Shown: positions 1,230 through 29,355, numbered from the whole stretch's first letter. The stretch is DNA of 53,628 bases, filler included, from Sluysia triapertura (GCA_046118255.1; 4 parts of 4 records of this genome joined end to end with filler, not necessarily neighbours in it), one strand, 5' to 3'. Translations and numbers: made by a program. Notes: generated by a model not told the origin, from the letters alone.

Positions 1230-2400
1230 ATAATATAATGAACATAATATCTACACATTTACTTAATCCAAAACATTTCAAGTTTAATCATTAACATCAG
1301 TGTAAAACATTTAATTCATATTTTAAAATCACTTTTTTAAAAAGAAACATTCTATTCAAAATGAAGTTTCTGTAACATCTTTAGTTATGTATTATTTCCA
1401 TTAAACATTCTTCTACCAGTTCTTTTCACATTTTAATTTTTCGTCTTTCGACATTTTAATGTCCTTTTCAAAGAAAATAAGAATCAGATCAAATATTTTA
1501 AAAAGCATTTAAAGTAAGAAAAAGAATTATTTTCATTAACAAGAAAGAAAAGAACTAAAAAGAATTTCATTTACAAGAATAAAAGATATATAAATTTTTG
1601 TATAATTATTTCTATTATTCATTTGTTACTTATGATTATCATTTTTATATTCAAAAGATCATGTAAGTTAAAGAAACATTGCATTTGTTTTATAATTTTT
1701 ACTATTATTTAATTTAATTTATTATTATTATAATTATTATTAATTTATTCTATTTTATATATTATTATTATCGCCATTGTTATTATTATCATTATTATTA
1801 TTATTTATCATAGTTTTAACTAAATAATTTTATCAATTTTGTTACCAACAGTATCATTTGTGATTATAACCTGTCATCAGTGGACAGTTTTTAATTTAAT
1901 GTCATGATGACAATTTCCGAGTCAACATACCGTGAAAGCTATTATGTTAATTCTATTACCATCAATTCAAGTCGAAATGTTCAGATACACAAATGTATGG
2001 CACAATGTCCATCCAAGTAGACAAATTCGGGACCTGTATCAAGTTTGGTGCATCTTGTCACTATTGTCATAATGTTTTGGAGATGAGCTAGGATAGTGTA
2101 AGGAACGTGATTGGTGGTGAACAAATGGATCAACAGGATCAGTCGTAACCTTCAATCTCAAGCTTTGGACAATATCATATTTTACAGTTATGTTAATGAG
2201 CCAGTATTTAAAGTAATTTTAAATTTTTATGATAAACTGACATTTGATTTTTATTATTTTTAAGGAACCCGAAATTTACAAGGATCATAGTATGCCTAAG
2301 ATGTTATGACGCGTTCAATATGATAAACAAATTAACAATTTTAACCATTTCTTAGATTGTATAATTAGATCCTTTAATAATAAATATGTGTTGTTATTCT
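1230..2400 (+). mobile_element. 5'-truncated, internally deleted TGTGGTGG-family cassette (U2) with decayed CCCH gene
   Basis: Leader ~1240-1330 resembles 8540-8640 (AATCCAAA(A)CATTTCAAGTT); box CTGTCA-TCAGT-GGACAG at 1871-1887; finger remnant 2006-2070 (MAQCPS/VDKFGTCIKFGASCHYCH); intron 2213-2264; last exon EPEIYKDHSMPKML*. Confidence 0.7.
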
Positions 2401-2999
2401 GTAAAGTTGTTAGAAAAAGAAAATAAATTAGAATTTTTAAAATTAAATTTGAGTAAATCGATAAGCAACTTTAAGAACATTCATAATTTAATTTATCTTA
2501 ATTTTAACGACAATTTAAAATAAAATCAAAGATATTATATATACCCCAAACAACTGGGTTATTTTCTAAAATATGTTTAATAAATTTCTTTGGATAAGCT
2601 GGTAAAATGTATTAATAAGACAGATCCAACAATAAAAAGAAACGATAATAAAATAAAAGCAATATTATCGTTATCCTCGCTACCACTATTGAATACCAAA
2701 AGTTTGAAAAGATATAATTTTTTACATATGGATAATGAAAAAAATGAACGTCTAAATATTAATGTATTTTTGTAAAAGCTGGGTTAAATTCAGGACAAAT
2801 TAGTATAAGCTGTTTAAGAATTCAAAGCGATTTATTTGCTTAAAAATGATAAAGTTCATCGTGGAGTTTTAAATTGTTTGTGTGTGTATGTTTATGGAAT
2901 TGTGAATTACAAAATTTAGACTACCGGGAGGAACAATGTTATTATTTTTGCAGGAAGTGCGTTATTTTAGAATTTACGTTATAATGTATTGAGGTGAAT

Positions 3000-3787
3000 G
3001 TATTTAACATATTGTGAATGATTGTTTATTTGAACTGTGGAGATTGTTTAAGTGGGCAATTTCTGTTTTTGTGTGTGGAGAGAGTAAATTAAAATTTTGA
3101 ATTACGAGGAGAACCACTACAAATATATCATCCGAATCGTCTACACAATCAATAGAATCTTCTGGTGACAACTCGGACTCCTCCAGATTAGGTTCAGAAC
3201 ACAACATAATAATGCTTAAATATCGAGAAACCAACACCATAATGGATTACATTATATATATTAGTAATTGCCCTCGTTCAATAGGCGAAACAAGAAGATG
3301 CTTCAGAACTTAAATAAAAATTCAAAATCATGAATATAGCTATAAATCATGGAAAAATAACAAAAAATCATAATTACAAATGTTTATAATAGGTACTAGA
3401 AATTGGAATTTATTTAGAAGAAATTAATCCTGCGGCATCCATTCGAAATTTATTGTATTTATTTGAAGCCTTTTATGATCGCTAAGCTGTGGCAGTCTCT
3501 GTTATGCATTTTGATCTATGTTAATAAGCTGTATCTTAGAATAATGGCGTCGATGGTGATAGTAATAATGTTTTGTAAAAGTTAAAATTTAATAGTGGTA
3601 ATAAATGAAAGTATTGTTCAATGAAAGTATTTTCAAAGTATAATCAATGAAAATTATTCAAAAAATATATGGGGATATATATGTAATGTTATGCATTGGT
3701 ATATGTAGAGTTTTAAGATGAAAATTTGTGTATGTATTTAATAATGAGAGTATACTGTAATCATAAGTGAAGAATTGAACCACCACA
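3000..3787 (-). mobile_element. TGTGGTGG-family cassette head (U3) facing U2, with decayed acidic orphan ORF
   Basis: CCACCACA at 3780-3787 (reads TGTGGTGGTTCA on minus, cf. TGTTGTGGTTCAC at 35040), followed on minus by a G-poor leader and ORF remnant 3004-3240 (SEPNLEESELSPEDSIDCVDDSDD). Confidence 0.5.
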
Positions 3788-4346: not shown

Positions 4347-4440
4347 CATAGAAAATATATCTTGTTTTAACCAAAGTGTAAACAATATTTGTATTTATAA
4401 ATGTTTCATTAAGTACTTAGATATCTGAAAATAAACAAAC

Positions 4441-4786
4441 CTGTTTTCCATAGAAATTGGTATCTCCCAAGAAAGACCCGCGAGACCCGGTGAAACTGAA
4501 CATAGGCAGAGGTACTGGAATGGGCACATTGACGCCAACTAGACCCACATGGATATTTTGAGTAAACTTGCGAGCAGTGGCACCACTTCTTGTGAAAATA
4601 GCCGTACCATTTCCGTAAGGATTCTTGTTGATTAATTTAATTGCGTCCTCGAGCGTGTCCACTTCCAAACACAGCAGAACTGGACCGAATATTTCCTCAT
4701 TATAGCACTCCATACCAGGCTTCACGTTAGTAATAATAGTAGGACCCACAAAGTTCCCATTTTCATAACCGGGTACACGAATGTCT
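4441..4786 (-). CDS. ALDH6A1: Methylmalonate-semialdehyde dehydrogenase, penultimate coding exon
   Basis: [19 protein letters not shown]...EEIFGPVL...[32 protein letters not shown]; acceptor TTCAG|, donor CAG|GTTTGT; phase joins correctly to the 6849-7423 exon. Confidence 0.96.
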
Positions 4787-5902
4787 CTGAACACCAAATT
4801 AATAAGTACTTCTTGAATTTAAATGTTAATAAATCAGTAGTTTCTCGATATTTATCACCGAGAAATTCTTGAACACCGAGAATTATCGCAAATAATATGA
4901 TCATCCATTAGAACATAATTATTTTCATCACAAAAAAGATTAAAAAAGCAGTATCAGTTAGATATTCGAGTCAGAGAGATGCTGAAGGAAATCTAGTTAT
5001 TAGTAAAGCTTGAACTAAAACTGCTGATGATCAAATCAATAATCTTGGATCAATTAATTTCTTTTGCACTGGAAAATTGGCAGAATTAATAAGTAGATAT
5101 TCTAAATCTAATATATTTAGCTTCTGAAATTTAGGAATCCATATATCGAATAGTTATGAAATTGTGAACAACTTATGGCGTATCTAGATGCTTCTGTGGA
5201 TTTTACTTTAAACACCTTTTAAATCTGCTATTTCAATCTTTACTTCTCGTTATCACTGACTTTCATTTTAACACTACTTCTACCACGATTCGTACGTATA
5301 TTTAGATCTAGGATGAGCTGAAGGAAAATTATAGCGCTAAATAAATTTAACAATTACTATAAGAAAAGTTAAAACGTGAATTGAGAAAAAACAGTGAATT
5401 GGTGGAAATAGTGTTAATGATTTAAATATCCGTTATTGCATTTTCTGACCCACGTTCGAGTAGTTCCAACGAGTACATCGAGTGGCATTATGATGAAACT
5501 TCTATTTATGAAGAAAAACACATTTGAAGCTAAAAATGAAATTTCGAATTTGTCTTTAATAAAGATCTATACTTTGCACGATACTTACAACAAAGACATT
5601 TTAACTAAGTTGTTCAAAAATTAAAAATATTAGCTCAAATTTAATTTAGATTTATTTGTCATATCAAAGTTCGTCCGAACTTCAATGTTTGACTATTAGT
5701 TGTACTGTGCAGATATAAGGTCAAGGTCGTAATAATAATATACTATCATTGTAACAAAATAAAAAACACTTCTATAATAAATTCATTAAGAAATACATTG
5801 GGCACTAAAAATAGTCTCAAAATCCAACACGTGAGATACTGAAATACTTAAATTGACAATATCAACAAGGGTTTTCTCAATGTATTAGTATATCTCATTT
5901 AA

Positions 5903-6779
5903 CACTAGATGTACCACAACCGGTCACACGACCGCTTGTTTTGTTTTTTATCATTTTATATACAGGGTGTCCTAAAAGTTACCGAACCGCAAACTTAAGT
6001 AAAAATTAGATATCAAAAACGACAAATGCAATTTCTTCCTTTGTCATTTTATAATATTTTGGTTACTATTCACTTCCTTCTGTGAATAGCAGTAGTCTTT
6101 GGAATGACTTCTTTGTGCGTTCTTATTGATTTTATTCTGACGTCATGGCTTATTTTTCGTTCAGTGTGCTCTTCTGAGCCCTCATTCTTAAAACTGCAGC
6201 AAAGGACTTTAGATTTAAACGAACATATCTTTGTTACTAAGCAAGGATTAGCTGCAAGCATGTTAAAGAAAGATGGGAAGCAAATGTCAGAACACCCATA
6301 CGGCGTAAGTCGACAATGTTCAATCTTGTATCCAAATTTGAAGGAACTATGTTAATGAGTTCCCAATCTTCAACAAGACGGAGCACTTGCGCACTAGACC
6401 AAAGATGTTTGTCAATGCCTTCATGAAATAATTCCTAGACAATGGATTGGACGCCGAGGACAAATCGAATGGCCTGCCAGATACCCGGAATTCTAAAGAA
6501 TGCAGTTTATGCTAAAAAGCTTAGGACAATTGATCAACTAATTGAATTCAGCGCGAATGGAACCAAATTTCAGAGGAAACTTGCCAGAAAGTATTGAAGT
6601 TCAAGATGGACATTTTAAATATTAAATATACCTTTTAAATTTGACGTTTTTGATGTCTAATTTTTAGTTAAGTTTGTAGTTCGGTTACTTTTGGGACACA
6701 GTGCATAAAGAAATAAATGCACATTATTAAATAAATTATATTGTAATACATCTGGTGACCGGTGATGGTACATTTAGTA
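5903..6779. mobile_element. piggyBac-like MITE with TTAA target sites, containing a nested Tc1/mariner element
   Basis: TTAA|CACTAGATGTACCACAACCGGTCAC at left; GTGACCGGTGATGGTACATTTAGTA|TTAA at right (imperfect 25-bp TIR). Confidence 0.7.
5963..6703 (+). mobile_element. Internally deleted Tc1/mariner-superfamily element (WIGR/WPxRSPD type)
   Basis: About 65-bp TIRs (CAGGGTGTCCTAAAAGTTACCGAAC... / ...GTTCGGTTACTTTTGGGACACAGTG), TA at left; transposase remnant QQDGALAH*...PRQWIGRRGQIEWPARYPE at ~6371-6492. Confidence 0.85.
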
Positions 6780-6848
6780 TTAATGCAATGCACATATGTT
6801 TAAAGATATTCAGAATTACTTTTTGTCAATAATTTCGAAAACACAAAC

Positions 6849-7423
6849 CTTCCATCAAGTATTACATTAGCACCATCTTTCTCACTGCGACTCACAATGT
6901 CGAGAATTCGTTGTTTTGATTGCGGACTGATTACAGGACCCAAATCTGCACCCGGTTCTGTGCCTGCATTCACTTTCAGCTTTTTGGCACGAGCAACCAA
7001 GTCAGGAATCCAGTCGCGAGTGTCACCCACAAACAAAGCAGTACTCAAAGCCATGCATCGTTGTCCAGCCGCCCCAAATGCTGCCCCCACCAATTGATTC
7101 AATGCTACATCTTTCTTAGCATCCGGCATCACTACACCATGGTTTTTAGCTCCGATGTTTGCTTGGACACGTTTTCCAGCTTTAGATCCTCGCTCATATA
7201 TATGCTGCCCTGCTTGATTACCACCGACAAAGGAAATAGCTCGAATATGAGGATGGTCGCAAATGAAATCGACGGCTTCTCGTTGACCGTGGATTACATT
7301 GATGACTCCAGGCGGAATTTCAATTTCATTGCACAACTCCATTAGCATCATGCAAGCTCCGGGATCTCGTTCAGATGGCTTCAAGACCATCGTATTGCCA
7401 CATACCAATGAAAGAGGAAACAT
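6849..7423 (-). CDS. ALDH6A1: Methylmalonate-semialdehyde dehydrogenase, central exon with catalytic Cys
   Basis: MFPLSLVCGNTMVLKPSERDPG...AISFVGG...GAKNHGVVMPDA...AAFGAAGQRCMALS...ILDG; acceptor TGCAG|, donor AG|GTTTGT. Confidence 0.97.
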
Positions 7424-7519
7424 CTGCATCAAAATGAGAGTAATATATCAAATCTAATGTCTAATTTCAATTTGGGACACTATACAAGCACTTAAAATTT
7501 GGAAGAATCACTATCTAAC

Positions 7520-7827
7520 CCATAAAGGTATCATGGCCGGAAAGTTGAATGGAGTGATGCCTGCAGTGACTCCCAGAGGCTCACGATAACTCACAAGATC
7601 CATATCTTTAGAAATACTCGGCATAGATTCTCCCATTTGTAAACTAGTGATACTGCAGCAGTGTTCCACAACCTGCAAACCTCGCAGAACATCTCCATTG
7701 GCATCTGCGAGTGTTTTGCCTTGTTCTAATGTAATGTTTTGTGCAATTTTTCCCATATTTCGTTTTATTGATTCTTGCAACTTAAACATATATTGCTGCC
7801 TCGTTAGAATTGATTTTGACGACCACT
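7520..7827 (-). CDS. ALDH6A1: Methylmalonate-semialdehyde dehydrogenase, upstream internal exon
   Basis: WSSKSILTRQQYMFKLQ...ITLEQGKTLADANGDVLRGLQVVEH...PLGVTAGITPFNFPAMIPLW; 96-nt intron 7424-7519; acceptor could be 7827 or 7825. Confidence 0.96.
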
Positions 7828-9271
7828 CTAAATGAAATTTATTTGGTATGTTTATGTAGTTAATATAAATGTTTACACTATTAGCTGATAATAGGATCTA
7901 GATGAATGGTGCTGACCAAGTGAATTCAGCGACGTAAGGTCATTCATATTTATGGGCCCAAAACGTAACAAGAAAGTATAACAAAAGTATAATATAAAAA
8001 ATGAAATTCAACATGTTATTATCAGTTACTAAACGAACACGAACAAATGTCATAAACATTCGGTATATTTATAAATTCTAAGAAACTAACTTCGAATACC
8101 GAACAAATTTGTTGAATCAGCGATATTCAAATTATCAAAATCAGAAAAATTAATTAAAGATAAACCTGTTTTTGTGTGACTTTTTTTGATTGTAAAGCTA
8201 TTTTCGAAGTTTCGACGTATTTTTCTATATAGGGTCCCTATCCCCGCATAAAAACAGGTTTGACAGTATTTAACATTCATAAAACAAAATTTTAAAGTTA
8301 CACATTCGTTGTCATCTGTGGTGGCCAACCTCTTTATTCAAAATCACAATTATTAACATTTTACTTTTTCAGATCTATTAAAACCTTTTTACATTCCAAA
8401 ACATTTTAAATTCACAATCTCATAATATTAAAATCACACTTACATTCAAAACCATTAATGTGCATTTCAAATTTTATTTGAAATATTTTTTAATTCTCAA
8501 TTTTACAACATTAGAATCACAATTTACATCTTAAATTATCAAATATACATTTTATATGAATCCAAACATTTCAAGTTCACAATCTTTCAGCACTCAATCA
8601 TTAACACCTTTGAAAAACATAAACACACTTTAAAACCATTATAAACATCCGAATCCAAATAAAATTTTAGTCAAATCAATTTCAGATATTTTAAAGAAAA
8701 GAAATTCATGCTTAAAAGAAGAGAAAAGATTTATATTGCAATTTTATGCGTTTATGCGTTTTGTATAATTTTATTATTATTATTATCATTATTTCATTTA
8801 TTTTGTTATTTACATTTTAATTATTACTATTTTATTACAATTTATTATTATTTTTCATTTCATTATTTTTATCGCCATCTTTGTTACTACTAACTTTATT
8901 ATTCTTACCATTAACATTATTCATCAATACTACAAATACCATTTATATTAGTAACTGCCAGTAATTGACAATTTTAATTTGGGTGAGGCTCTTATCATTG
9001 TGTTAACTGTCAATTGCTGACAGTCTCATAACTGAGAATTTAATACATATCATTGCGTCACACCAACTGGCCATCCAATAATAGTTGATAAAATTAGTAG
9101 TGGTAATACAACCAGACTCAACAGTAGTTAATAAGAGTGTTCTGTGATTAAAAAAGAGACAGAAAAGTACTCTAAATATATATACTCAATTAACAGATAC
9201 CTAATTGTTAGAATTTTAGTTATTGTACGTTTAAAAAATTAAAAGGCTTAAAAGAAAAACAGAGGTAAAAA

Positions 9272-10399
9272 ATGCAGATCGATATTTTAAAAAGTATGCC
9301 TCGAAATCCAAATATCGAAAGAATAAAGTACATCAATGTAATCAAAATAGTAATAATTCAATGATTAAATTAGACCGATTTTATAGAAGTTGTAATGAAA
9401 TAATCATGAATGTTCCTCGTTTATCAATAAATCTTCAAGTACTGTAAATAAAAGTTTAAATCGATAAATTCTATGTAATTATAAAAAATCATCTAGATCT
9501 GTCAAAACATGTTACAATTACTTAGAAAGTTTTTATATTATGAAAATCGATCCTACTGTTTGTGAAGATAAATTGTATAACAATAACGTTGATTTTTTAG
9601 ACAATTTCAGGTGAAAGATATCAAAAACGAGAACTTATAAGCCATGGAATGTCGCACAACCAATATATGTGTTTAGAAAACCCATATGAAATAATAATTT
9701 CATATAATATGGCAAATCGTGGTCTCATGTTTCAAATTGATCATCCAGAAATTCATGCAATTTTGTATAAACACTTAATGCTTTTATTAAGACAAAATGT
9801 TCAAGAATCGGGAAAGTCTGATGTTATGCAGCTAAAAGATTTTAAGAACAGACAGATTATATGGAGTCGTATCACAAGATCGACTATTTCGTCTCATCAG
9901 CATTAATCGAGAGATATATTGAATTGATTTCATCATGGTTAAATATTGTTAATTGTGTTCAAGTAAATGGTAAAGGCCAATCTCGTTTCATGTCTATTTC
10001 AAACATAATCTCATCTAATCAAAAACGTATGGCGCAATGGCCCTCGGAGTAGATGTTTTTGGTACTTGTATAAAATTCGGCACATACTGCCCTTACTACC
10101 ACGATATATCTCAAATAAGTACTAATCAACATGAAGCAGTCGAACACAGAAGATTAGATGGTTTATTGGCCTCTTTAAACTGTAGATATTACCACAACGA
10201 CTTGAAGTTCAACAATTTTCAAGCTCAGGGACATTATGAAGATAATGATCCTCTTCATAAAGTAATTATAATTTTGTTATCCACGCAACCATTTATTTAT
10301 TTATTATTTATTTTTTAGGAATCCACAATTAGAACTTTTGATAATGTATCATATTTTGGACAAAAGAAGACAGAGCTCACAAATTTCATTAACATTTGA
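9272..10399 (+). pseudogene. Decayed CCCH zinc-finger cargo gene of U4
   Basis: Chain of frameshifted ORFs (9649-9906, 9861-10052, 10037-10318); finger remnant 10038-10102 (QWPS/VDVFGTCIKFGTYCPYYH); phase-0 intron 10262-10318; last exon ESTIRTFDNVSYFGQKKTELTNFINI*; AATAAA downstream. Start is approximate. Confidence 0.65.
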
Positions 10400-10579
10400 T
10401 ATAAAATTTAGATTTCATGTATGTCAAAATAAAATTTTATGCTTTTATTTTCTTAACGATTTTGATACCAGAGTAGAAATGAAAGTTTTTAATATAAAAT
10501 TATTTAATTATTTTCCTAACAACTCAATAAATTTTTATAATTTAATTTTAATTTGTTATTAACAATTAAACTAATGAAC

Positions 10580-11400
10580 TATACAACTCCAAAGTTTCGA
10601 AAAACTTGGACTATCATTAGTTTTAACAGTAGTAATGATTCTAGCGTTTTCGATAATTTCGAAGATAACCCATTTCCAACTTTATTCCTTAATAATCGAA
10701 CAGCCTTGTTATCATTTTCAGCTACTTTTAAATACATAAATGTTCAATAATTTTGTGTACATGAGATAATCTAAGATTTGTCTACTGGATTCTATTTAAT
10801 TCGTTGTAGTCTGTTTTAATCACTAAATCAAATTTCGACTCCCCAAAATTTCAGAAATTTTCAAAATTCATAAATTGTGCTTAAAAGGTCATTATTTAAA
10901 CAATATATATAATAATGAAATTAATAATATTTTTCGTTTTGTTTAATTCATTATAATAACATTATAAAATACATTTCTATCAGAACTTAAAATTTTACGA
11001 AATAGATCTACAATTCGTTAACTTCGATGATTTGATAACAGCAACAAAATTTTTCTTGTAATACATCACTCGAATTTTTCTTAGTACATAACCGTGACCA
11101 ACCAAATTTAAGTGTTCGTCCTCAGTAAGTGATTTATGTATATATGGTTGCATTTGCACAGGCACAGCTTCAAATACATGATTATCTTTTCGAAATAATA
11201 CTAAATATTGCGAGTTTTTATTTGTATCTACTAGTACAGGTTTATACCTTATATTTTATTGGTAAATGAGTAACACTCACTAAGACTTCTTTTTTCACTA
11301 TCTTCAATGGTGGCTTTAATGCACTTAATACAAATCTCGGAATACTTGTACAGGCTGCACGCAATCTTCTCTGTTTCTTCGAAAATTCGGAGATAATCAT
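10580..11400 (-). pseudogene. Decayed spliced orphan gene convergent with the CCCH gene inside U4
   Basis: Minus-strand open stretches DYLRIFEETEKIACSLYKYSEICIKCIKATIEDSEKRSL (donor GTGAGT at 11280) and YKPVLVDTNKNSQYLVLFRKDNHVFEAVPVQMQPYIHKSLTEDEHLNLVGHGYVLRKIRVMYY (~11000-11247); no recognisable domain. Confidence 0.4.
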
Positions 11401-13249
11401 TAATAAAATTTAATACATAAATACGTTTCTTGCCTAAACAGTTTTTTAATTCAATTTTAACACAAATTATTGATGAACATAAGTACTGATAAAGTAAGAC
11501 ATTTCACTGAATAAAAGTAATAAACTGAATAAACTGTTTGAAATGAAATATGACTAACATCAACATAATTAGTTATTATAATATTGAGTGATTTTATTGT
11601 GGAATTTTGTAATTTGTAGAGTGTGATTCGTAATTTTTGTTGAATTTATAAGATAATGTATAAAATATAATTAATGTGAGTGATAATAAAATTACTGCAG
11701 ATGACTGAAACACCACATTTTCTAATGATTTTTCTTCTTTATTCAATGTGCCAGGGTTTCCAATAACTAATTATTATTCTTGTTATTGTTATTATTAACT
11801 AAATCAAAACGCAAATGCAAAGTTTTATTGCCGAACTGTCTTCAAGGTAAAAAAACTATTTTTATAATATCGAAAATTATTAAACTTAGTGCGAAGCCCT
11901 TTTAATAAGCTATATAATATCTTAAAAGCACTAAATCATTGGCAATTATATTATTTTCAACATATCATTTAGTCCTTAATCTTTACTTCAAGTTAAAACA
12001 AAAACTAATTTCAGAATTTCTTATAATACTTTTGTTAATTACAAAAATGTTCAATTTAAATAAAAATTCGAACAAACTATCGATTATTTGCTTTATTTCT
12101 TATAATTCTGATAAAACTTAGAAAATTTAAACTGAATTGATGATAAAAACTTTCTATCAATTATGAATATCGAAGAGTTGCCAATAAGTAATATTTTTCG
12201 ACAATAGTATTCCAAATGACAATTTCAACAATAACCGCAAAATAACAAAATATGGATTACCAAAATTTAAACAATAAACGTAAAACCACGTACCAAAAAT
12301 TGAACAGTTCAGGAACAATAATCGAAAATTAAGTAACTACCACATCACTTTTTTGTATTTTGGTCTCAGTCTTTTATATAAATTCAGTAGTTATTTATTT
12401 TTTGACAAATTTTAAAATTAATTAACATTAAGTAATTTTTATTTATTTTAAAACTCGTTTTATTTATTCTAATAATTAATATTTATATTTCGGTTATATT
12501 ACTCAGGTTATTTGTTTACCTATTAAAATTATTATATTATTTTTAATATTATTATCATTTATAATTTCAGATACCCAACAAATAATATTACATTATGCAT
12601 AAAATATACATCGGTATTATAAAATTTAATGTAATGTCAATAGTAATAAAGGATATGTGTCGTATTACATTATGTACTTATAACGTTGTAATACTTTATT
12701 CTACCATGTAATGTAATATTCGAAGAGGTGAAATTAATCTCACTTCCATCTCGAACACCTTCAGATTTTATAAAGAACTCGAAAATAATTTTGTCTAGTA
12801 TGATTAATACAATCAGTCACAGACGGAAAGATGTTCTATCTTAAATAGGAATAATAAAATGACTATTGAGAACAATGTCAGAGAAAACTGATTAAAAATA
12901 TGCACAATAGATAATTTTTGAATTAAAGCAAATAAAATAGACACAATAAAAAAGGAACAATAAATAATTATTTTGAAAGAAGCAAAATAAAATCAAAGCA
13001 AAAACTTGAAACAGTCGTCAACAGTTAGAAAATAATCATTGAATATTTTATATAGTAAAGGAGTAATCACGTCAATTTAAATTAATTGTGAGCTTTTCAT
13101 AATTAAAGAGCAAAATCATGAGTAAAATCATTTACATCTCTTTTAATTAATCTGTCAAAATCAAACTTGGTATTCGTTTTGTTATTGCTCATAATTCAAA
13201 AGCGAAATAAGAGCTTTAGAGACTGTAACTTTATGCTATTAAGTATCTA

Positions 13250-14390
13250 ATTTATTTTTGTGTTGTGGTTATCTAAAGAAAATGCTTGATAAGTGAAATT
13301 TCATCGTGCAGCCTTAAAAGCGAGCACAGTGGTTGTTTGGCGAGTTGTCAAGAATTATCTTACTTGGCGTTAATATAATATAAGTTGTTTTTCGCACATC
13401 GCTTCTTTCTCGATAGCTTTAAGAGCTTCGATTCGCTTATGTTCAATCATAGTTCGTTCTTCTATCCAAAAAGGTACCATTTAGTTTTGTTATTTCAAAA
13501 AGGAAGTTTACAAAGATGATCAAATGTTCAATAACTACAATTCCACAATTACATTAATAGCATTGTTGTTTTTTACTTTTCCACTAATTCCAGTAATTCC
13601 CAATTTACTCATATCAATTGCAACAGCAAAGTAACTGCCAAACTTGTTCACCGAATGGACTTTGAAAGCAATTAATCCAATTTCAAGAATATTATTTAAC
13701 AAACAAAACAATATAATCAAATTGGATAAACATTGGATAAACAGATCATCATACTTAGAAAATATAGCTTCTTCTACTTGAAAAAGTGTCATTTCACAGC
13801 TAGACCGTTTTGAAGTTGACATTTTAGAATTCCATACAACAGTAGCGTCCGGAAAATTATTTTTATATAAACAAAATGCAATTTTGATAGTGGGAAAATG
13901 TGTCACTGTTATTTAAATTATTATTATATTTACTGGGTTTATAATAATGAGGAACATAAGGGTTATAACTCATGTTTGAAAATGAAATAACCACCATTGA
14001 GAAATCAAGACAGAATATTATGATGACTTGTGATAAAATAAGTGTATAAAATATTTGATTCAAAATGAAAAAATGAAAGATATGAAGAATTAAATTGATG
14101 TTCATGAAGATACCAATTCAAATATGCGACGTAAAATTGACGCATAAGGTATTATACAAAAGATTTCTGTGAAAAATAAATTTATTTCATTATTTTTTTC
14201 CTTAATTTCAATTAATAAATTGCATTATTGATATAATAATTTGTGTAATTTATATTTCCTTAAGAGAAATAAAGACTTACGAATGTGTTAATCCGGACAC
14301 GAGAGCAAATCTTTAATTGAAAAATGGAATGTATTACAGAACGTTAAGCAGTATCATAGCCGATAGTTGAGTTCCACAAAAGCTTTATAA
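13250..14390 (-). pseudogene. Decayed spliced orphan gene
   Basis: ORFs 13535-13906 and 13863-14105; donor GTAAGT at ~14280; short terminal intron GTAAGA...TTTTAAG (~13314-13363) followed by AATAAA, the same 3' layout as the cassette genes. Confidence 0.35.
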
Positions 14391-15399
14391 CCAAAATTTC
14401 TTTTCAGCACAGAATTAATTTAAATTGACTCCTTAAATTCGAGTATTACTGATTAACTTTTAATAAAATTTTATGGTACTTAGAAATTTTTAATTAAAAC
14501 TGACAAATTGATTCCTTAAATTCACGTAACACGAATTGACTTTCTAATAACTAAATTTCCTTTTAATAAATAACTATTGTCCTTTTAATAACTAAATTTA
14601 TCTTTTATATTCTTTCCAACATTTAGCATTTAGTATTTTTACAGGTAATTAACTTTCATAAATTTTGATATAATAAATTATATAATATCAGATACATTTG
14701 GAACATCTGGTTGCTTGCTTATTATCTATTATCATCAGTAACTATTTATCATTTTTTAAATTTCAGTTCTCAATTATCCTGTTATATTAGTTTATTATTA
14801 TTATTACTACTACTACTACAATTCTTATTATTTATTTTTTATTATTTTAGATTATTGTTCAAACGTCCAGATTTCTGACTCTGACATTATTATTTTATTA
14901 TTATTCATTAATATCCTACTTACATTTATATGTTTGACATTATTATTTTATTCTTATTGCAATATTATTATTAATTATTATTATTTTATTAATATTATCA
15001 TTGTTTTATAACTATTATTACTTCATGATAATTATAGTTTATTTTGGCATGACAGAAAGATGCCATTATTATTTTTCAGTAAAACAGTTTTATTAATTTT
15101 CCGAATAACCAATTTTTAAGAAAATAATAAACATTTTTATTATTTAATTTTGGATTTACTTCATCAAATAAATTAAATACACATAAGTTTTATCGATTTG
15201 GGTTGTTGACATAGTTGTAGTTCTTTTGATTGTCTTATTTATTGTTAAATTTGACTGAGCCGTACTAAATTTGCAAAAAACAAGTGATTATCTCGAGATT
15301 TTCATTCGATTGAAGTGTAATTTGCCATTTTACTAATTTAATCAAATGTGGGTAAGATACTGGATCAAATAATAATATTATTAATTATAATGCATTAGA

Positions 15400-16830: not shown

Positions 16831-16912
16831 CGAAATTAGAGACTAATTTTCCCAAGCGAAAATTATTTGTAGTAATGTAGTGATATATTTTGACATACAC
16901 TTATTTGATATA

Positions 16913-18589: not shown

Positions 18590-19055
18590 TATTTACCTAC
18601 GGAAAAATATTTTTGAGCAGGGTCTGGTTACAGTAAACGTCTTATGTTGTGCAGAGGGTGTTTCTGTAACTATATAAGCTAATATTTTATCTGAATAGAA
18701 ATACTCCTTAATTGTGGTCTTATCGAATGCTCAAAATTTTAATAATTTACTCTGCAACTTTCAATAATTAAATAGAAATAAAAATAATAACTTTATTATA
18801 CAAAATACTAAAGCTTTATAGCAATAAAAATACTAAAGATGATAAAAACAGTATTTTAAAGATTAAAGCTCCAATAGTACTTAATCTATTGTCTGTATTA
18901 TTTTAAGTATATATTAACATCTATACGTCGAGGATTTAATAATTAAATTTTACTGAATATTTAAGTAAAATTTTAAAATTTCAACTTCGAAGGTTGATAC
19001 TAGTTTATATACTAGTCATCAGCCGATAGGAATCGATGGAAGCTTCTATTGCATT
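18590..19055 (-). repeat. Interspersed repeat family X, inverted partial copy
   Basis: 18615-18675 is the approximate reverse complement of 23715-23775; 19005-19050 of 23120-23170. Confidence 0.75.
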
Positions 19056-19059
19056 TTTA

Positions 19060-20905
19060 ATTTATAATTGTTTTATTAATGTGGTTTAATTTATTGTACA
19101 GAATTAAAATTATTAAATTGAAATTGTTTGTTATTAAAATTTTATTTACTTTATTAAATATTGTTATTAAAATATGAACTTGAAAATTACGATTAAGTTT
19201 CATTGTTATCTTCATTAAATAAATTGTTTTAAATTCACTTAGAAAAAATAACAAGTCGCACAAAACATTGAACTTACTTATATTAATTAAACTACGAGTT
19301 ATAAATTTGACACCAATTATCTTCCGAATACGATTAATTTAAGATCAGTAAAGTAATATTTAAATTTTACTTTTATGTTATCTGGTACCACTCGATCGTA
19401 TTGTAGATTTGTGTGACTGTTATTGAGCATGTCGAATTGTTCCATATAAGTATATTGTACTGGAGAAGTACTTAAAATTGATAACAGCTTGTCTATTCTG
19501 TTGAGATGTAGGATAGCATCTGTTGAATTATTTCCAAACTTTTGGAGTTCGTCAGCTGTGTGGTAATATTTGCGTCTTGTGACATATCTTGAGCATTCTC
19601 CGGTTAGTGTTGTTATGTACGGACATAGGGCCGTCTTATAATGTTTGTTGAAATCTGCTAGAGTTGACATCTTTGTGCATTGCAATTTGTTACCAGACTA
19701 CGATGAATTGAAACGAATAATTTCCGAATTGATGTTTGAAGTTTTTGATTGTATTGAGCACAGTTTATTTGTCATAACAAATAAATCAACATCTACTAAT
19801 AGATTGATAGGCATAAGCATAAATAGTTTTATTTAATCTCCAGATATTGTCATATATCTTTATCAATCTGTTTCATTATATAAAGCTAGCTAATCAAGTG
19901 ATAAACTAAATGGTAAAATAAGTCTGTTCATGATTGGACGACCAATAGAATTATATATTGCTAAATGTGTATTTGTACTCAATGAGACGGTGAGTATGTA
20001 TGCCCACAATCAAACTTCCATTATTCGACTGTCGGCATTTGACAGTAAATATTATCGACACAGTCTTGTTTAATTAAGCTATCAATCACTGGCAGTTACT
20101 AAGATGTGTTCAATGTTAATATTAAATTATTGATATTAACATGATAATAATTAAATAGTAATACTAATAATAATACTGATAATAGCAATAATAAAAATGG
20201 TTAAAATGATAATAATAATAATAGTAATAATGAATAAAATAAAATAATAATAACAAAATAAAAACATAAACCTCTTTAATATCGTCTAAACACAATCTTT
20301 CTTTTAATTTTATTTACTATTTTCTTAACACATTATGAAATGAAATCCTTGAGAATCATAAATGATGTTCTTTTATCTTTGTTGATTATCTGGATACTTG
20401 GTTTCCTTCTTTATGCTTTTCGAATTATAAGTTGTAAATAAGATTGTGGTTTGGATATTAAAAGATTGTGGATTAAAAATGTTTTAAGATATTAAAAATG
20501 ATTTTAGTAAATCTAAAAGAAATGAAATACAGCAACGGTTTTGATACGTTCTAAAAGGTAGTTATACAATGTTAACAAATGTCCTTATGATTGTACTGTT
20601 ATGTAACTATGAATAAAATGTTTTTAATGAATTTTTAAAAGTCTGTTATTAATCTGAAAGTGAATGTAATGTTAATGTTATGAAGTATGAAATAGAAATG
20701 TTTTGAGAAGGTTAGGATACGGTTTTTGTGGAAGTAAAGGAAGTGAGATATGAAAAGGTTTAGATGAAAGAATAATTAAAATGTTATGGAATGTGATTTT
20801 TTGTGACGTGTGTTGAATTAAGTTTGCAATATTTTGAATTAACCTTTTAAGTAAATCATTGATGATTTTCCGTATTAAATGTAAATTTGATGTTACGTAA
20901 TTTTA
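19060..20905 (-). mobile_element. TGTGGTGG-family cassette (U6), first ~90 nt missing, with CCCH cargo gene
   Basis: Leader 20600-20905 (minus) aligns closely to 26985-27170; boxes 20079-20095 and 20029-20045; TGATTGGACGACCAAT at 19931-19946; finger YKTALCPYITTLTGECSRYVTRRKYYH (19560-19640, third Cys mutated to Arg); candidate phase-0 intron 19321-19370. Confidence 0.8.
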
Positions 20906-21191
20906 AGTTTCAAAAGTATAGGACGCATTATGCAAACTTTTTATTTAAGGGACTATACAACAAATTTTGAATATAAAGTTTTAAAATAGCAAAGGTAATT
21001 AATTCTGATATGGAATTGTTGAGCAAGTTTGCCACACTTCTCAAATGTGAAGTCACAAAAAGGCGACCCTCGTGTAAATTCAAAGCTGCGAATTATACCG
21101 AATTCAATTTTCCTGGATACTTGATAATTTATGTCAGTTCTGCTTGAAACTCGACAATAATCGGTGTAATTCTTGCTTACCTTGTCGTATA

Positions 21192-21668
21192 CAGTGGTGG
21201 CCAAGTTATTAGACTAAAGACCGTTTTTCAAGGATACTATGAAACTATTAATCAAAAGTATATAAAAATATTGTCACGAAAAATGTAAAATGTTGGAAAA
21301 TAACTACTTTCTCCAAAAAATTCTGCTGAAAGTAAAATAATAGATTAAAATACTGAGATCCAAAACATACGGAAATTTTATTCATGTAGCATGATACTAC
21401 AAATCAAATACGTACAAACTGTTGTATATCAGTACTTTGTTTACCCTCCTTTGTTATCCAATAGTTTCCTGATCCTTAAAGGCGCATGCCATGGATGAGC
21501 TTCTCGCCATCTTAATGCCATACTTTTATCAGGGTTTCAATAAGTTTATGGGTAGAAACTTTCCTTTTGACAATCGCCCACAGATTTTCTATGGGATTCC
21601 AGGCCAGGGTAGCAGCTTAACACCATAAACACATTTTTCTGTTTAGTCTAATAATTTGGCCACCACTG
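21192..21668 (-). mobile_element. Internally deleted Tc1 element
   Basis: TA|CAGTGGTGGCCAAGTTATTAGACTAAA ... TTTAGTCTAATAATTTGGCCACCACTG|TA; minus-strand remnant GVKLLPWPG/NPIENLWAIVKRKV; second copy at 51766-52210. Confidence 0.92.
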
Positions 21669-22378
21669 TAACACTGTTACCTTGATCTTATGTTCTTAGT
21701 GTTATAAAATAATTCTGCTTTTAAATCTACATAAAACCGTAATAGATTGGAAAATTCTGAAACAATTTTCTTTAATTTGATTAAATACTTCATTAAACGT
21801 TTATTTAAATGGTAGTAACTGATTCAGATGTGTTGTCGACGAAGTTTCGGGCACTATCTTGAAGCATATCTTCACTTAGAGGCATATCTTCGAATCGATC
21901 TCTTTGAGTGGAACTTTTATAGACTTTCTAAATCGCTTTCTTAAGTCTACTTCATCAGCAAAATTCTTGTCCAATAACAATTTCTTTAACATTCTTCAGT
22001 TTCTTTCTATATTCCTCTTTACAAACTCAGTACATTCACTTTCAGTTTCGTTCATCCACTCATGACAATCATCAAATATGCACTTTTAATATAATTCAAT
22101 TTAGTGCATTATCTTTCAATTATTTTATTTACTAAACTGAGTAAATACGGAACAAGAAGCAGCAGATTTATTTTCCATATACAAATTAATAAAAACCTTT
22201 TGAAAATCAATTTACAATTCACACAATTTTCTCTTGCATAAAACAATGAAACATTTGTGAATTAATACTTGAAATATTTCTATCAAAAGCAACGGATATT
22301 GTTGTATCCTTGGTTATATTACGTCCGAAATAATTTGCTTATAGAATACAGTAGTTTAAGATATTATTAGAAACAGTT

Positions 22379-22658: not shown

Positions 22659-23815
22659 TAGGTTGTCATCACAACCCTCTAAAATCATGTAAAATGTTAT
22701 TAACCCATTCCCTGTTTATTTATTTTTCAAGGGCATGGTTGAAAACTAGGTATTTTTTTATTAGTGAAAATGCGAAGACAAAATAATTTTCTTCTAATAG
22801 AAAAACAAATAAAACTAGACAAACAAGGTAATAAAACATAGAATGTAATATTAAATAATAACAAAAGAAGTGTATAAAGATATTTCCGACGTCGTTTTAT
22901 AAATATTACGAAGATTACACTTATTTTTTCGTTTGATTGTTTTGGTCCGTATATGTACAGGATTTTATGCTCTGGTCAGTTTTAGTTCCCCCGTAAATAT
23001 ACGGAATAAACAGGGAAGGGGTTAAAACACTCTAAAAAACATTTAAATCACTTTAAAAATATTTATTTTCCAAAAAGGAAATTATTTTTCGAAAAAGAAA
23101 ATTTGCTTCTAAAAATAGAATAGAAGCTTCTATAATGTTCATCGATTTCTATTGGTTGATGACTAGTATATTAATTTAGCATCAGTTTAATTTAGTAGCC
23201 ATTTCTTAATCACCATTTTGGATTTGGCTACAATTTGATTTATAAATTTTCACCGAGGAAAAAACGATTTATCATGCAATTAAATAATCAATTTTTAATT
23301 GGCTATCCTCGTCAAATCATTCAGCGTTATTAATATCATTTATTAGTAGGGCATTTTAGGAAAACAAGCTGAATTTGATTTATCATTCTCGCAAAGATTT
23401 AGCAAGTTACATTTCTATAAGTTCTTTCAATCATACAGATTGGAATAATATAATCATACGGAAAATCATTTATTTAACTTTGTTTAACTCTACCTTCTGA
23501 GGGTAAATTTTATATTCAACTTATATTATAAAAAGAGAAAATTAAAGATCCTTTGTGATTTTAATTGTTATTTCTATTTGATTACACTCTTTCATTTCAT
23601 TAATATTCAGTTTATACCATAAAAGAAGATGATTGTTTAATAAAACCGTCATAAAACATTACAATTATTAAATAATTAACGACTCTCAGTCATTTTATGT
23701 CAAAATTTGCTTATTATAGTTACAGGAACACCCTCTTTACGACATAAGACGTTTACTGTAACTGGATCCTGCTCAATTTTTTATTTTGCCGTAGATTTAG
23801 ATTTAAGAAAACTAT
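22659..23815 (+). repeat. Interspersed repeat family X (probable non-autonomous DNA element)
   Basis: TAGGTTGTCATCACAACCCTCTAAAATCAT and GCTTCTAAAAATAGAAT...GATGACT blocks shared with 50026-50225 and, inverted, 18590-19055. Confidence 0.7.
22704..23021. mobile_element. piggyBac-like MITE inserted in family X
   Basis: TTAA|CCCATTCCCTGTTTATT ... AATAAACAGGGAAGGGG|TTAA; absent from the family X copy at 50 kb. Confidence 0.85.
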
Positions 23816-24239: not shown

Positions 24240-24700
24240 TTGAGTTGGTGCATACATTCGTGCGGTTTTATTTGTTGCAAAGAAAACACACCAATTTCTT
24301 GTTTTAACTGATTTGAGTTGTATGCATAGATCTGAATTATCTATTTAAATCATTTTAGACTAACTTTCACTTTCATTACCCTCATTAAAATGGAGTGTCA
24401 ACTAGATAAAAATGAACATTTCCGGCATCTACCCCTTTTCTATTTTAATCAACATTTAATAGAATGGAGAAAGGCAGTCAGTAAACGAACAGCACAAAAG
24501 TGGTTTCGAAAAATCACCAAGCTTCTTCAAACGTGGGATTAACTATCTGCAACAACGGTGGAAAGAAATGATCGAGGATTGAGACTGAGATATTTGTTTT
24601 TTCATTTTGTTATCTGGAATTTTTTGCATGGTTTTTATTCTTGATCAATATTCATTTTTCATATTTGTGAAAAACCCCACGAACTTATGCACCAACCCAA
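24240..24700 (+). mobile_element. Internally deleted mariner element
   Basis: TA-flanked 30-bp TIRs TTGAGTTGGTGCATACATTCGTGCGGTTTT / AAAACCCCACGAACTTATGCACCAACCCAA; remnants MECQLDKNEHFRHLPLFYFN, AVSKRTAQKWFRK, FFKRGINYLQQRWKEMIE. Confidence 0.92.
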
Positions 24701-26087: not shown

Positions 26088-26431
26088 GTTCTCCGCAAGA
26101 TGCACGAACTCCATTCAGCAACACTGTTGGTATTTCTTCCAGGCAACAGACTCACTATCCTCAATCGATGATCCATCATTCTATCTTGGACCATTTATTG
26201 TCATCTTTAGACGAATATAACAATGAATATACCCTGCCATCCCTACCAATTGTAATAACTGAAGAACAGGAAGCTGCTATCATGTTAGAAACTAGTTACC
26301 AACTTAGTGGAGCATCACATTACGATCCTAACTCACTCAAGGAGCTCTATCTTACTTTGACTAGTCTTGATACTGAACTGACGGGTTGTTTGGGTTTTGG
26401 CGATTTAGTGTTGTCGTTCCAGCGAAAAGGA
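26088..26431 (+). CDS. Uncharacterised EF-hand-like protein, exon 3
   Basis: Acceptor TTTTAAG|; GSPQDARTPFSN...DPNSLKELYLTLTSLDTELTGCLGFGDLVLSFQRKG (helix-DxxxxG-helix EF-hand-like); donor GTTAGT; in phase with exon 2, but the join crosses a gap. Confidence 0.65.
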
Positions 26432-26898
26432 GTTAGTCTTGAATTAAGTATTACTATAAATGTATAACAATAATAATCTCATTTGTTGCCAATATAAAAT
26501 AAATTTCACAAAGACCTCAGTAAAACAGAAATTCGACGAATTATTAACTTGTCATTTACTAGAACGTGCGATTTGATACTTGGTAACTTGGTAAGACTTC
26601 CAGCTTTAACAATCTCAACTGTCAAGAGTGTTTAAATATTTTCATAAAGATCAAAAGTACTAACAAACACCTACAAACAATGCCTTTTTGTTAGACCTAG
26701 CTTAAGAGACAACAAAATAAATATGTAACGACTTAAAAGTGCAGTAGGCGTATCTGTAACTGTGATTACAAATTCTGAGCTTCGAATCATCTGTATAACT
26801 TAATATATCTTAGTATAATGTCTTAATAACAGAGGTTCAAATTTATCACATTATGCCTTATTTGAATTTAGAATTTGACTGCTTATTCTACTATAGCG

Positions 26899-29355
26899 TG
26901 TGGTGGTCGACCCAATACTTCGAAATTGTATTCCAATATTTCACAACATTTTATAACTCATAATAAATCCAAACATTCTAGACAAATTTCGTAACATCAA
27001 TTTTACATTCAATACCAAAATCATCAAAGATCTACAACAATAATTCAAAATATTGCAAACTTTATTCTTACCTTCTCAAAACATTTTTAATTCATAACTT
27101 TATATCATTAAAATTATATTCATTTTCAGATTTACAATGTACATTTAAAAATTCATTAGAAACACTTTTAGGCATTATTTAATAACATAAAAATCACAAT
27201 TACACCTTAAATCATCGAACACACATTTCAAAATATTTCAACCTTTCAATCTTTTAACATTCAGCCTCTAATATCATCGAAAAACATTAACTTAACTTTT
27301 AAATTATTTTTAGATATTACAATCAAAATGACATCTCTTCATCATCCTTAGTAAGTATGATTATCTTTAAACAATCCTCCGTCAATTCTTTCTACGTTAC
27401 ACATCTCGGTAATCACTGAATAAAGCCTCTTTTAAAGAATAAAATCAGAATGTCTTTCAAAAGCTTTCAAAGATGAAAAGGACATCATTTACATAACTTC
27501 ACTTATTTATATTTAAACTAAAGAAATTTCATTAGTTAAAACTTTCTACAGTATTTTCGGTTGATTTTCGTATTATTGTTATTTTTATTATTAATTCATT
27601 TCAATTCATATTATATTTTATTATTATTATTACTTTATTTTATTTAATATTGACCCCATTTTATTATCATTTATTTCAATATATCATCAAAATTAATAGC
27701 ATGTGTATCTGTTTATTCACACCCTGTCACCAGTCGACATTTTAATTTAAAACATTTTAGCAATCCTTAGGCACTGTCGACGGATGACAGTAAATTACAT
27801 TTCAGTCTAATCAAAAACACAATTCAATCCACGTGCACTCAAGCTCGTAATTTTAACTTATTAAATATAGCAATTGATTGGACGTCCAATCATCACTTGT
27901 AACAAAAATTATAAAAAAATGATTTTATAAGAGTTTAATTTTACAGTGTTAGCTACCATTTTTATTAATTGTATATTAATACTAATATTTACCAAAAATT
28001 AACTGCAGATTTTATTGAACATTGACGATCCAAATAAATAAATAAATAAAAAATTGTTTTACACGACATGTCTACGATAACAAGAAACATATCAAGATTA
28101 ATGGATCCCTTTTATTCGAACCACAAGACTGTGTTCAACTTAGTAAATTCGAAATTAATTTCATATTTGATTCGTTGATTGTTGTTAATGGAATCGGTGA
28201 TGAAACTTTGGGTTTAGATTCTCTAAGAAGTTTACTGAACGAAAGGATTGCTATGATTTTGAAGTTTTATTAGAGTTATATATTGACAAAACAATTAATA
28301 TGGTACCATTTCTAATTCTTATCCATAGACTATTTCGTCTTGTTTGTATTTCTTATGAAACTGGAATCACCGACAAAAATTTTGTTGCTATAAATAGTGA
28401 AATGTTAAATAGATTTAATGTTGAAAGTGAACAAGATGATGATACTATAACATTAAAAGGTTATTTAGTTTATTTAAAGTATGAGACTAAAACTATGTAT
28501 GATGAGTATAACAGCAAATGTCATGGAATGAAGCAGAAAGTGGATAGAAGAAAACGAAACTGTCTTCAGTATTTAAAACGATCGAAAGAAATAAAGTCAG
28601 ATAATAATTTTTATGTGTGCATATGTAAAACCCTTCGTGAGTTTCATTTCTTAGTAAAACTTTTCTCACAGTCTAATTTGGAATTACCTAATGATTTTAA
28701 TAGTCTAAAGCATGTTATACCATTTGATGTCAATAAATATCGCGTAAAAATAAAAAATGTTTTATAATTTATAATTTGTTGAATTATTTGAAATTATATA
28801 AAACTTTAGCGTTTAAATTCAACTTTGAACAAATAAAAATGATGTGCATCACCTTATTATTTTTCCTGCATAACCAGTATCAAAAGACCATAATTTAAAC
28901 GAAAACAATTTGAATTTCATATTCTTCAAACAAGCTACAGATGCATCAGGAACATCGTATATGGAAAGAGTAAAATTTACTTTAGGATATTGTCACACAA
29001 TTTTATTTGACAAATACGAACTCAAGGTTAAAATGAATTCACCTGATGTTAGTGGACCAAACAATTTTGTTGACAATGTTTACTTGGAAGTAATTCCTAA
29101 TCTTATTACTATCGAATTAAGTTATATTATCTATTTTTATTTTAGGATCCACAACCCCGTGCAGTCGATAGCATATTCTCGAATGAAGACTCGTCATAAA
29201 AACAACAAACAATTTCTTATTATAAATTTAGATATGGAATTTAAATGCGTTATAAATAAAATTGTTTATTTGTCCTCATTTATTTTTATTTCTAAACTAT
29301 GTAATAATTAAATTAAATAAAGCTAATATTACACTGTACAACTTTAAATACACAA
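26899..29355 (+). mobile_element. TGTGGTGG-family cassette (U7) with decayed cargo gene lacking a visible CCCH
   Basis: Starts TGTGGTGGTCGAC; G-poor leader; boxes 27724-27740 and 27774-27790; perfect palindrome TGATTGGACGTCCAATCA 27875-27892; broken ORFs ~28070-29089; intron 29090-29145; last exon DPQPRAVDSIFSNEDSS*; flanked by ATAGCG on both sides. Confidence 0.8.

Follow-up and report, generated by a model that had tools for sequence, protein, structure and literature searches.

What are short palindromes, set in pairs at a fixed distance, doing in front of broken genes in an animal genome? The question is raised by a stretch of DNA from Sluysia triapertura (GCA_046118255.1; four records joined end to end with filler), the whole 53,628 nucleotides of which we call the window. 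It is eukaryotic, AT-rich animal DNA (~26% G+C) with scaffold gaps, the first of them at 16970. An earlier note on this DNA had described 17-bp boxes of the form CTGTCA-N5-TGACAG in the heads of repeated cassettes, ahead of a cargo gene, and had taken them for an operator of a dimeric protein that serves either as a promoter module or as a recombination or replication site. All seven 17-mers quoted there are present at the given positions, and the alignment of four heads (c1–c4 of the five units c0–c4) bears out that the boxes belong to repeated cassette heads that precede a cargo gene. A protein-binding site is still the best reading, with promoter and recombination or replication site as the two leading options for its use. 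At a probability of about one half, we favor the view that the boxes form a head-to-head protein-binding pair and belong to the promoter of mobile DNA cassettes, members of a non-autonomous family.

Boxes, arms and polarity

The pattern CTGTCA-N5-TGACAG with at most two mismatches occurs eight times in the window compared with 0.96 expected occurrences, a count that none of 100 shuffles reached; the eighth match, besides the seven boxes, is a lone site at 25566. When spacer lengths from 0 to 12 nt (n = 13) were tried, matches with zero or one mismatch appeared only at 5 nt (one and three matches, respectively). Full pairs are found in c2 (box 1 at 8955..8971, plus strand, CTGCCA-GTAAT-TGACAA; box 2 at 9007..9023, minus strand), c3 (box 1 at 20079..20095, minus strand; box 2 at 20029..20045, plus strand) and c4 (box 1 at 27724..27740, plus strand; box 2 at 27774..27790, minus strand). 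The spacing of 52, 50 and 50 bp reported for these pairs holds, and none of 60 first-order Markov simulations yielded any pair 40–65 bp apart. With a symmetrised weight matrix, the seven boxes reach 17.8–25.4 bits and the next-best site 12.2, and in a leave-one-out version every box still ranks within the top seven.

Two assignments had to be corrected. The pair at 20029 and 20079 belongs to a minus-strand unit, and the supposedly single box at 1871..1887 (c1, plus strand, CTGTCA-TCAGT-GGACAG) is a box 1 followed by what appears to be a shrunken box-2 remnant (1900..1913, plus strand, TGTCA-TGA-TGACA). This remnant pairs with box 1 in the fold and overlaps the likely start codon; the CCAAT region of the other units is missing here. 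Boxes are present in all four heads of the window. We compared the arms with their neighbouring bases in c2, c3 and c4, the only units with full pairs (n = 3), and found the boxes to be the more conserved, so that the reading survives this comparison: invariant columns make up 14/19 positions of box 2 and 9/19 of box 1, 7/31 between the boxes and 9/41 just downstream. Since the boxes were picked by their own motif, this conservation is partly ascertained, and the best part of the head core (80/130 invariant columns) is more conserved than box 1.

The four copies of box 1 and the reverse complements of the three copies of box 2 combine into a directional 19-mer consensus, ACTGYCA-NYART-YGACAGT. 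The arms are conserved, as had been claimed, but their outline as hexamers does not stand: the true arms are 7 bp long (ACTGYCR/YGAYAGT), the T of TGACAG varies (10 of 14 half-sites have T, the other 4 have C or G), and 11 of the 14 retain the outer A/T beyond the hexamer. The description of a simple palindrome around a free, diverging spacer has to be given up as well. The spacer has a direction, and box 2 repeats box 1 as its reverse complement (16/19 identical when reversed in c2, 15/19 in c4). Spacers match across boxes in 33/60 comparisons when inverted and in 11/60 when read directly, which is the top result among 240 permutations of column order and strand; their final base is T and their second base a pyrimidine in all seven boxes. 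The pair forms an inverted repeat around a centre of 31–33 bp. Both boxes of a unit change jointly between the type of c2 and c3 and that of c4 (CAGT-CGAC and CCGT-CGAC in c4, TAAT-TGAC and CAAT-TGAC in c2). Within single boxes, 0/7 pairs are changed on both sides, which argues that the sequence is kept and not pairing alone.

Units, heads and cargo genes

The units are about 2–2.5 kb long and their parts follow in constant order: a TGTGGTGG start, a G-poor head, an ATT-rich tract, box 1, box 2, a CCAAT dyad and the cargo gene. The four heads align with each other (local alignment score for c1 and c4 170.5, shuffle maximum 92), share a core of about 350 bp with 3–6% G on the sense strand and run into ATT-rich tracts of 85–88% A+T next to box 1. 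A TGTGGTGG start is seen in c2 and c4. Exact copies of TGTGGTGG occur five times in the window, and all of them begin a G-poor stretch (skew −0.38 to −0.60, a value reached by 2.7% of 300-bp windows); three of the five head other kinds of unit that have no box. The boxes lie well within the unit, 638 and 825 bp when counted from the start motif TGTGGTGG, and upstream of the likely start codon. A CCAAT dyad follows box 2 in all three full pairs, exact in c3 and c4 and with two mismatches in c2; the distances from where box 2 ends are 42, 82 and 86 bp. Head cores are 69–79% identical, cargo proteins 26–37%. The heads show no internal tandem periodicity above background, and Rfam gave no match in the window at the gathering score. 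We also considered that the head might be decayed coding sequence and rejected this idea, as every one of the six frames has stops and the heads have no protein signal in common.

On the plus strand, c0 consists of a cargo open reading frame (ORF; 545..1051) whose head would lie to the left of the window. The c1 head (1080..1690, without TGTGGTGG start) follows directly, with its ATT-rich tract at 1690..1865 (88% A+T) and a frameshifted cargo gene at 1907..2450. In c2, the head (8317..8740) has the TGTGGTGG start and a core with 3% G; its ATT-rich tract spans 8760..8950, the degenerate dyad 9066..9079 and the frameshifted cargo gene 9598..10450. Unit c3 lies on the minus strand, from a head with undefined left end (20300..20950, 79–83% identical to the c4 core) through the ATT-rich tract (20100..20270) and the dyad ATTGGTCGTCCAAT (19933..19946) to a cargo gene with two in-frame stops (19100..19853). 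On the plus strand again, c4 comprises a head with TGTGGTGG start and G-poor core (26899..27500), an ATT-rich tract (27540..27720), the dyad ATTGGACGTCCAAT (27877..27890) and a frameshifted cargo gene (28068..29311).

To judge by their sequences, the five cargo genes are diverged members of one family, not unrelated passengers. Among 594 frame pairs, c1 and c2 are homologous at a z-score of 17.2 and c0 and c3 at 7.3; c2 and c4 share DNA homology over the intron and the second exon (z 6.4), that is, the 3′ part of c4. All five genes have a GT-AG interval, a putative intron, at the same place (968–1022 in c0, 2213–2264 in c1, 10262–10318 in c2, from 19370 in c3 and 29090–29145 in c4), and none of the five is intact: each is interrupted by stops or frameshifts, in c0 by stops in the frame upstream. 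A CCCH finger is common to c0–c3. Its ligand set C-x-C-x-C-x3-H is complete in c0 (C-x9-C-x6-C-x3-H at ~743–808), split by a frameshift in c1 (remnant from 2029) and short of one ligand in c2 (remnant from 10061) and in c3, which has the best-kept lead-in (YKTALC); c4 has no recognisable finger. The cargo matches Pfam zf-CCCH_UNK with E values of 0.011 and 0.016, under the curated cut-off, and its finger resembles the RNA-binding fingers of TIS11 type (PDB 6NZL, E 0.012; 1M9O, E 0.23). CCCH clusters of the Atlas are similar to the cargo at 0.81–0.84 and serve as leads only. The name CCCH family, suggested by these matches, is weak but concordant. The cargo of c2 and that of c4 had been suspected of homology at the N-terminus too, which did not hold up (E 17).

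Searches for relatives further afield were negative. The ORF of c0 has no homologue among proteins of near length, that of c4 none among longer proteins and no usable match in the Atlas, and a profile of four cargo pieces found nothing at E 0.001 among 1.84 billion representatives. Viral contigs held no relatives of the c4, c0 and c3 proteins, and 12 proteins gave two weak matches in PHROGs, to families of no assigned role. Two predicted structures are of low confidence (mean predicted local distance difference test score 36.5 and 36.0).

Depth was estimated from the summed contigs of the public run X1 at 80% likeness over 4400–16880. By this measure the head is a very-high-copy repeat at hundreds to 2000 times single-copy depth: the bin with the c2 head start has a depth of 15,154 (46,915 at 8396) and the rest of the head 2,646. 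Over the boxes and leader the depth is 184, and over the cargo gene 220–434, about 50-fold below the head. Majority letters are those of c3 and c4 at position 8396 and that of c4 at 8590, so the signal comes from this family. The picture is one of many subfamilies with a common head core, the close copies numbering about ten to twenty in each. None of the joints listed, 15 of 204, skips a unit.

The units stand in both orientations within the window. Unit c4 runs from TGTG (26899) to CACA (29354) and would end just behind the gene. Its candidate right end (29334..29361, plus strand) reads CTGTACAA...TACACA and is followed by AATAGCG, 6/7 identical to the left flank TATAGCG (26892..26898, plus strand), a candidate target duplication with a chance of 0.013 per random start. 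A candidate right end of c3, picked post hoc (19080..19100, minus strand), reads TGTACAA...AAACCACA, the inverse of TGTGGT; its motif, CTGTACAA...ACCACA, resembles that of c4.

The window also contains three middle exons of a host gene for methylmalonate-semialdehyde dehydrogenase (4441..7836, minus strand; residues ~84–492, E 8e-54), the best database relatives of which are animal proteins from several phyla with at most 75% identity. Its exons are single-copy (depth 20.6–25.9). In the whole window, the best minus-strand profile score was 15.6 for the exon of residues 50–72 (10th percentile of members 78.2) and 20.8 for the last exon (78.0). Because first and last exons are absent and the sequence is gap-free up to 16969, c0, c1 and c2 lie inside two introns of this gene. 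The missing terminal exons imply introns of at least 9 kb and at least 4.4 kb, or of more than 45 kb if the scaffold is joined correctly.

Weighing the readings

How might such a pair work? The 19-bp pseudo-palindrome would take a dimer, the halves of which would read slightly different sequences, and two dimers about five helical turns apart would sit on the same face of the DNA. Together with NF-Y at the CCAAT dyad 42–86 bp downstream, these dimers could drive or throttle transcription of the cargo gene, whose product would be a small CCCH zinc-finger protein that probably binds RNA. As both boxes of a unit change together, the binding protein may be encoded by the element. Since introns are kept, the cassettes would spread as DNA, moved in trans by an enzyme, and the candidate TG...CA ends hint at an enzyme of integrase type. 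The cargo would diverge rapidly in each subfamily while selection on active copies preserves the head core and the sites, and inserted copies would decay. Sites that are internal, whole, of fixed sequence, five turns apart and ahead of a CCAAT dyad and a gene most likely represent the anatomy of a promoter.

The nearest working model in animals, by analogy, would be the m1m2 motif pair of the CERP2 and CELE2 miniature inverted-repeat transposable elements of Caenorhabditis, which serves as a promoter recognised by the transposase-related factor HIM-17 (excerpts of PMC9757741). As in our case, these are high-copy non-autonomous DNA elements with a motif pair of fixed orientation and spacing. 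According to the same excerpts, the motifs are two unlike ones 12–28 bp apart within terminal inverted repeats and no gene is carried, whereas the boxes described here are inverted copies of one 19-bp pseudo-palindrome, 50–52 bp apart, internal and ahead of the unit's own gene, which bears a putative intron. Ginger1 and Ginger2/Tdd elements share with these units a TGTNR left terminus, a length of a few kb and a tolerance for spliceosomal introns (part of PMC2836005): TGTGG is found in all five exact TGTGGTGG starts and at the left end of c2 and c4, and on the opposite strand the candidate right end is TGTGG in c3 and TGTGT in c4. Ginger elements differ, as far as this part of the source describes them, in terminal inverted repeats of 40–297 bp (here at most 4–6 bp), target duplications of 4–5 bp (here a single candidate of 6–7 bp at 1 of 10 starts) and an integrase, none of which lies within these units, whose cargo is a CCCH gene. 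Since long terminal inverted repeats, the 4–5-bp duplication and the integrase are missing, we do not file the units under Ginger.

A bacterial parallel is offered by AbiEi, which binds two inverted repeats in the promoter of a type IV toxin–antitoxin system (excerpts of PMC7319586), an arrangement of two inverted-repeat sites ahead of a gene as in our units. The pair pattern retrieved no stretch from viral contigs and 17 from metagenome contigs, none of them a relative: six tandem arrays (L001, L002, L008, L010, L011 and L014), ten bacterial intergenic repeats or operator-like pairs, and one single box inside an ORF region (L005). Four loci have the same core in pairs 47–52 bp apart ahead of abiEi-abiEii-like operons (bacterial ACTGTC-N7-GACAGT operator pairs at L006:2130-2198, L007:1455-1523, L012:3002-3070 and L017:2913-2976), with inverted polarity in the three that were checked (L006, L007 and L017). 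These loci are bacterial, and the cargo genes described here lack a winged-helix domain. Because the loci were selected with the same pattern, the likeness is by construction and convergent, with no sign of kinship; as an analogy it shows that the layout would suit cooperative binding of dimers. Two further observations from the same contigs are a similar pair flanked by a phage-integrase gene and a divergent operon (L009), and 19-bp tandem satellites of the same palindrome (TACTGTCAAACAGTGACAG type) with neighbours that resemble long interspersed nuclear elements (L002:1663-2074 and L010:706-1117).

The pair could instead be a signal for mobilisation, bound or recombined by the enzyme that copies or moves the cassette. 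It would consist either of double-stranded iterons next to a tract that is AT-rich and unwinds or, as in bacterial attC sites, of a folded single strand in which the two boxes pair and rebuild an arm–spacer–arm site. This is unlikely in our estimate, though second only to the promoter reading. Counted as a stem, box 1 and box 2 pair in 43/51 cells (84.3%), with 2/17 pairs changed on both sides; the DNA of c4 folds well (z −4.5 and −4.1); and the joint changes of both boxes, the tract of 85–88% A+T abutting box 1, the strongly strand-skewed head and the end of the c1 deletion next to the boxes all fit. But the two double changes, from three sequences, are equalled in 58/500 shuffles and as many appear in a slid control, the fold is weak in c2 (z −1.2 and −1.9) and includes no long stem in c3 (z −0.3 and −0.8), and the boxes are whole and internal, not split at unit ends. 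Integron cassettes likewise have one attC site each, with two arm–spacer–arm units inverted around a variable centre (part of PMC5027507); attC is able to fold, whereas folding here ranges from good in c4 to absent in c3. The RYYYAAC/GTTRRRY consensus, extrahelical bases and unpaired spacer described there have no counterpart here, where the spacer is paired and conserved in sequence; attC stands at the cassette border and the box pair 638–825 bp inside the unit, and neither an integrase nor another recombinase or Rep was found with the units in Pfam scans of the window ORFs. Improbable, in our view, is a huge host multigene family in birth and death, similar to the SSSGP genes of the Hessian fly, in which the boxes would be host transcription factor sites and nothing transposes. 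Such a family would explain tandem and inverted neighbours in one cluster, a non-coding head kept far better (69–79% in the core) than the proteins (26–37%), an intron position common to five copies and the lack of long terminal repeats; clusters of tandem and inverted genes with conserved non-coding and hypervariable coding parts are indeed reported for SSSGP (excerpts of PMC2955719). It would not explain why all five copies are decayed, why units occupy two different introns of a housekeeping gene, or why a sharp start motif is shared and head depth is ~50 times cargo depth. SSSGP genes, in the same excerpts, encode secreted proteins with conserved signal peptide, untranslated regions and intron, whereas here signal peptides and conserved untranslated regions are absent and introns have diverged.

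The earlier note had linked TGACAG to TALE homeodomain proteins (Meis/Prep/TGIF). The sequence does not support this link, and sites for such proteins acting with NF-Y are, in our judgment, very improbable. Six of 14 half-sites do read TGACAG, one (at 20079) reads TGATTGATAG and matches the DECA motif at 9/10 positions, and a CCAAT element follows in the same promoter region; TALE factors and NF-Y sit together on vertebrate promoters, and a DECA-CCAAT composite element is described for TALE, NF-Y and Sp2 (parts of bioRxiv 10.64898/2026.02.16.706105 and PMC6023610). Against it stand a T of TGACAG replaced by C or G in 4/14 half-sites while the outer A/T is kept in 11/14, the absence of the full DECA motif TGATTGACAG from all 14, a CCAAT distance of 42–86 bp instead of the 10–12 bp given in those sources, and a directional spacer that would be left unexplained. 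Sites of ZBED1/DREF, also considered, have similar TGTCR half-sites in a contiguous palindrome (TGTCGYGAYA or TATCGATA) and were rejected since the half-sites here are 5 bp apart. We give hardly any credence to a pair that acts as RNA, a stem of 17–19 bp in the leader of the cargo mRNA or in an antisense transcript, maybe bound by the CCCH protein itself. RNA folds of c2 and c4 (z −3.2 to −3.8, both strands) and the TIS11-like finger would fit this role, but c3 gives z 0.1 in sense and −2.05 on the other strand, no Rfam family matches, a stem needs no self-palindromic arms of fixed sequence, and a sense transcript would start past the boxes because the CCAAT dyad is downstream of them. Just as far-fetched is a long solo long terminal repeat (LTR) on the opposite strand, with the cargo antisense in U3, boxes and CCAAT as U3 enhancer and promoter, poly(A) signals in the AAT tract and the G/T-rich head as R/U5 ending in CCACCACA. 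It is suggested by the TG...CA ends and target-like duplication of c4, by a head far more abundant than the cargo and by the strand composition of the head, and since the cargo would be antisense its intron would survive. LTR retroelements have paired LTRs, a primer-binding site and gag/pol, and no paired LTRs, primer-binding site or gag/pol remnant lies beside any unit; a duplication of 6–7 bp and an LTR of 2.4 kb that carries a gene would also be unusual. Helitrons start with TC and end in a hairpin and CTRR; this class was rejected as the units start with TGTGG. A YTRA-T motif is present 15–19 nt past box 2 in three units, with homology continuing beyond it.

Several points weigh against the promoter pair on mobile cassettes that we favor. 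There are only three full pairs in the window, and depth over the box region is low (184 in the bin, 29 at 8883), so that heads elsewhere may often lack boxes. A folded structure would account equally well for the two compensatory changes seen between the boxes. Depth summed over contigs cannot be read as a count of copies, and the assembly may itself have been built from run X1. A duplication is seen at only 1 of 10 starts, with a family-wise chance of ~0.12, and its length of 7 bp with one mismatch is unusual; c1 and c2 have no clear right end. The intron placement falls if the exons not found turn out to be micro-exons, or if the scaffold was joined wrongly. Finally, 49 Pfam scans of the window ORFs revealed no binding protein, transposase, integrase, recombinase or Rep for the units.

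Neighbouring repeats and meaning

A second TGTGGTGG-headed family without boxes is represented at 29419–30470 (plus strand) and 38760–39363 (minus strand). The heads are 65% alike over 183 nt, and behind each come a decayed ORF and a stretch that resembles an intron; the 3′ parts are homologous (z 6.1). Further starts similar to TGTGGTGG, which open C/A-rich heads and come with decayed ORFs that are unrelated, are found on the minus strand at 10870–11717, 3130–3787, 2450–3121 and 33700–35040. Minus-strand units of this kind stand tail to tail with c1 and c2, several have CAAAATTTT about 20–30 nt past the start, and the 11717 head is multi-copy (depth 1,548 in its bin) with a nearly single-copy cargo.

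Other repeats surround the units. One family, 83–93% alike (30707–30931, 46870–47220 and 53461–53628), bears a GTCT microsatellite close to one of its ends and has CTAGT at the opposite end, and we take it to be Helitron/DINE-like. A different family with a short hairpin and CTAGT at its end occupies 18995–19065, 22660–23184 and 50020–50208; a 70-bp end piece of it lies directly behind the c3 unit. Elements and remnants of Tc1/mariner type, with weak matches to DDE_3 and HTH_48, are located at 21188–21670, 51760–52214, 5947–6717 and 24336–24700, and the end of the 21188 element, CAGTGGTGGCCAAGTTATT, oddly resembles the start of the 39363 head, TGTGGTGGCCAACTTATT. A very-high-copy repeat at 15242–16492 (depth up to 108,066 at 15676) contains ORF remnants that match no Pfam family, and a 500-bp repeat at 31405–31920 has an inverted copy, 84% alike, 6 kb away at 37881–38381. 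A host gene similar to the Ras family, with low-complexity insertions and a weak Pfam Ras match, spans 49650–52977 (plus strand).

A bolder proposal, which we consider rather improbable, is that the units are animal mobile gene cassettes of an undescribed class. They would comprise thousands of intron-bearing one-gene units of 2–2.5 kb with a common TGTGGTGG end, moved in trans; the inverted pair would be a subfamily-specific recognition or recombination site, possibly a refolded single strand as in attC, for the exchange of heads and cargo, and the CCCH proteins, which evolve fast, would act on RNA, for instance against host silencing. The full-text literature, in a weak search with most subscription papers and Repbase outside its scope, gave no account of the motif pair or of an element with CCCH cargo. 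If the pair were a recombination handle, this would be the first animal cassette-exchange system of such a layout known to us.

If the favored reading of a promoter pair on mobile cassettes is true, this genome would hold a very large unclassified family of mobile cassettes whose sole gene encodes a fast-evolving protein of RNA-binding type. Its most conserved parts would be short control sites, the opposite of the usual transposon pattern, and the motif could be used to find both the mobilising enzyme and the binding protein. In such a family one could then study, in nature, how selfish DNA holds on to its promoter even as the passenger gene turns over.

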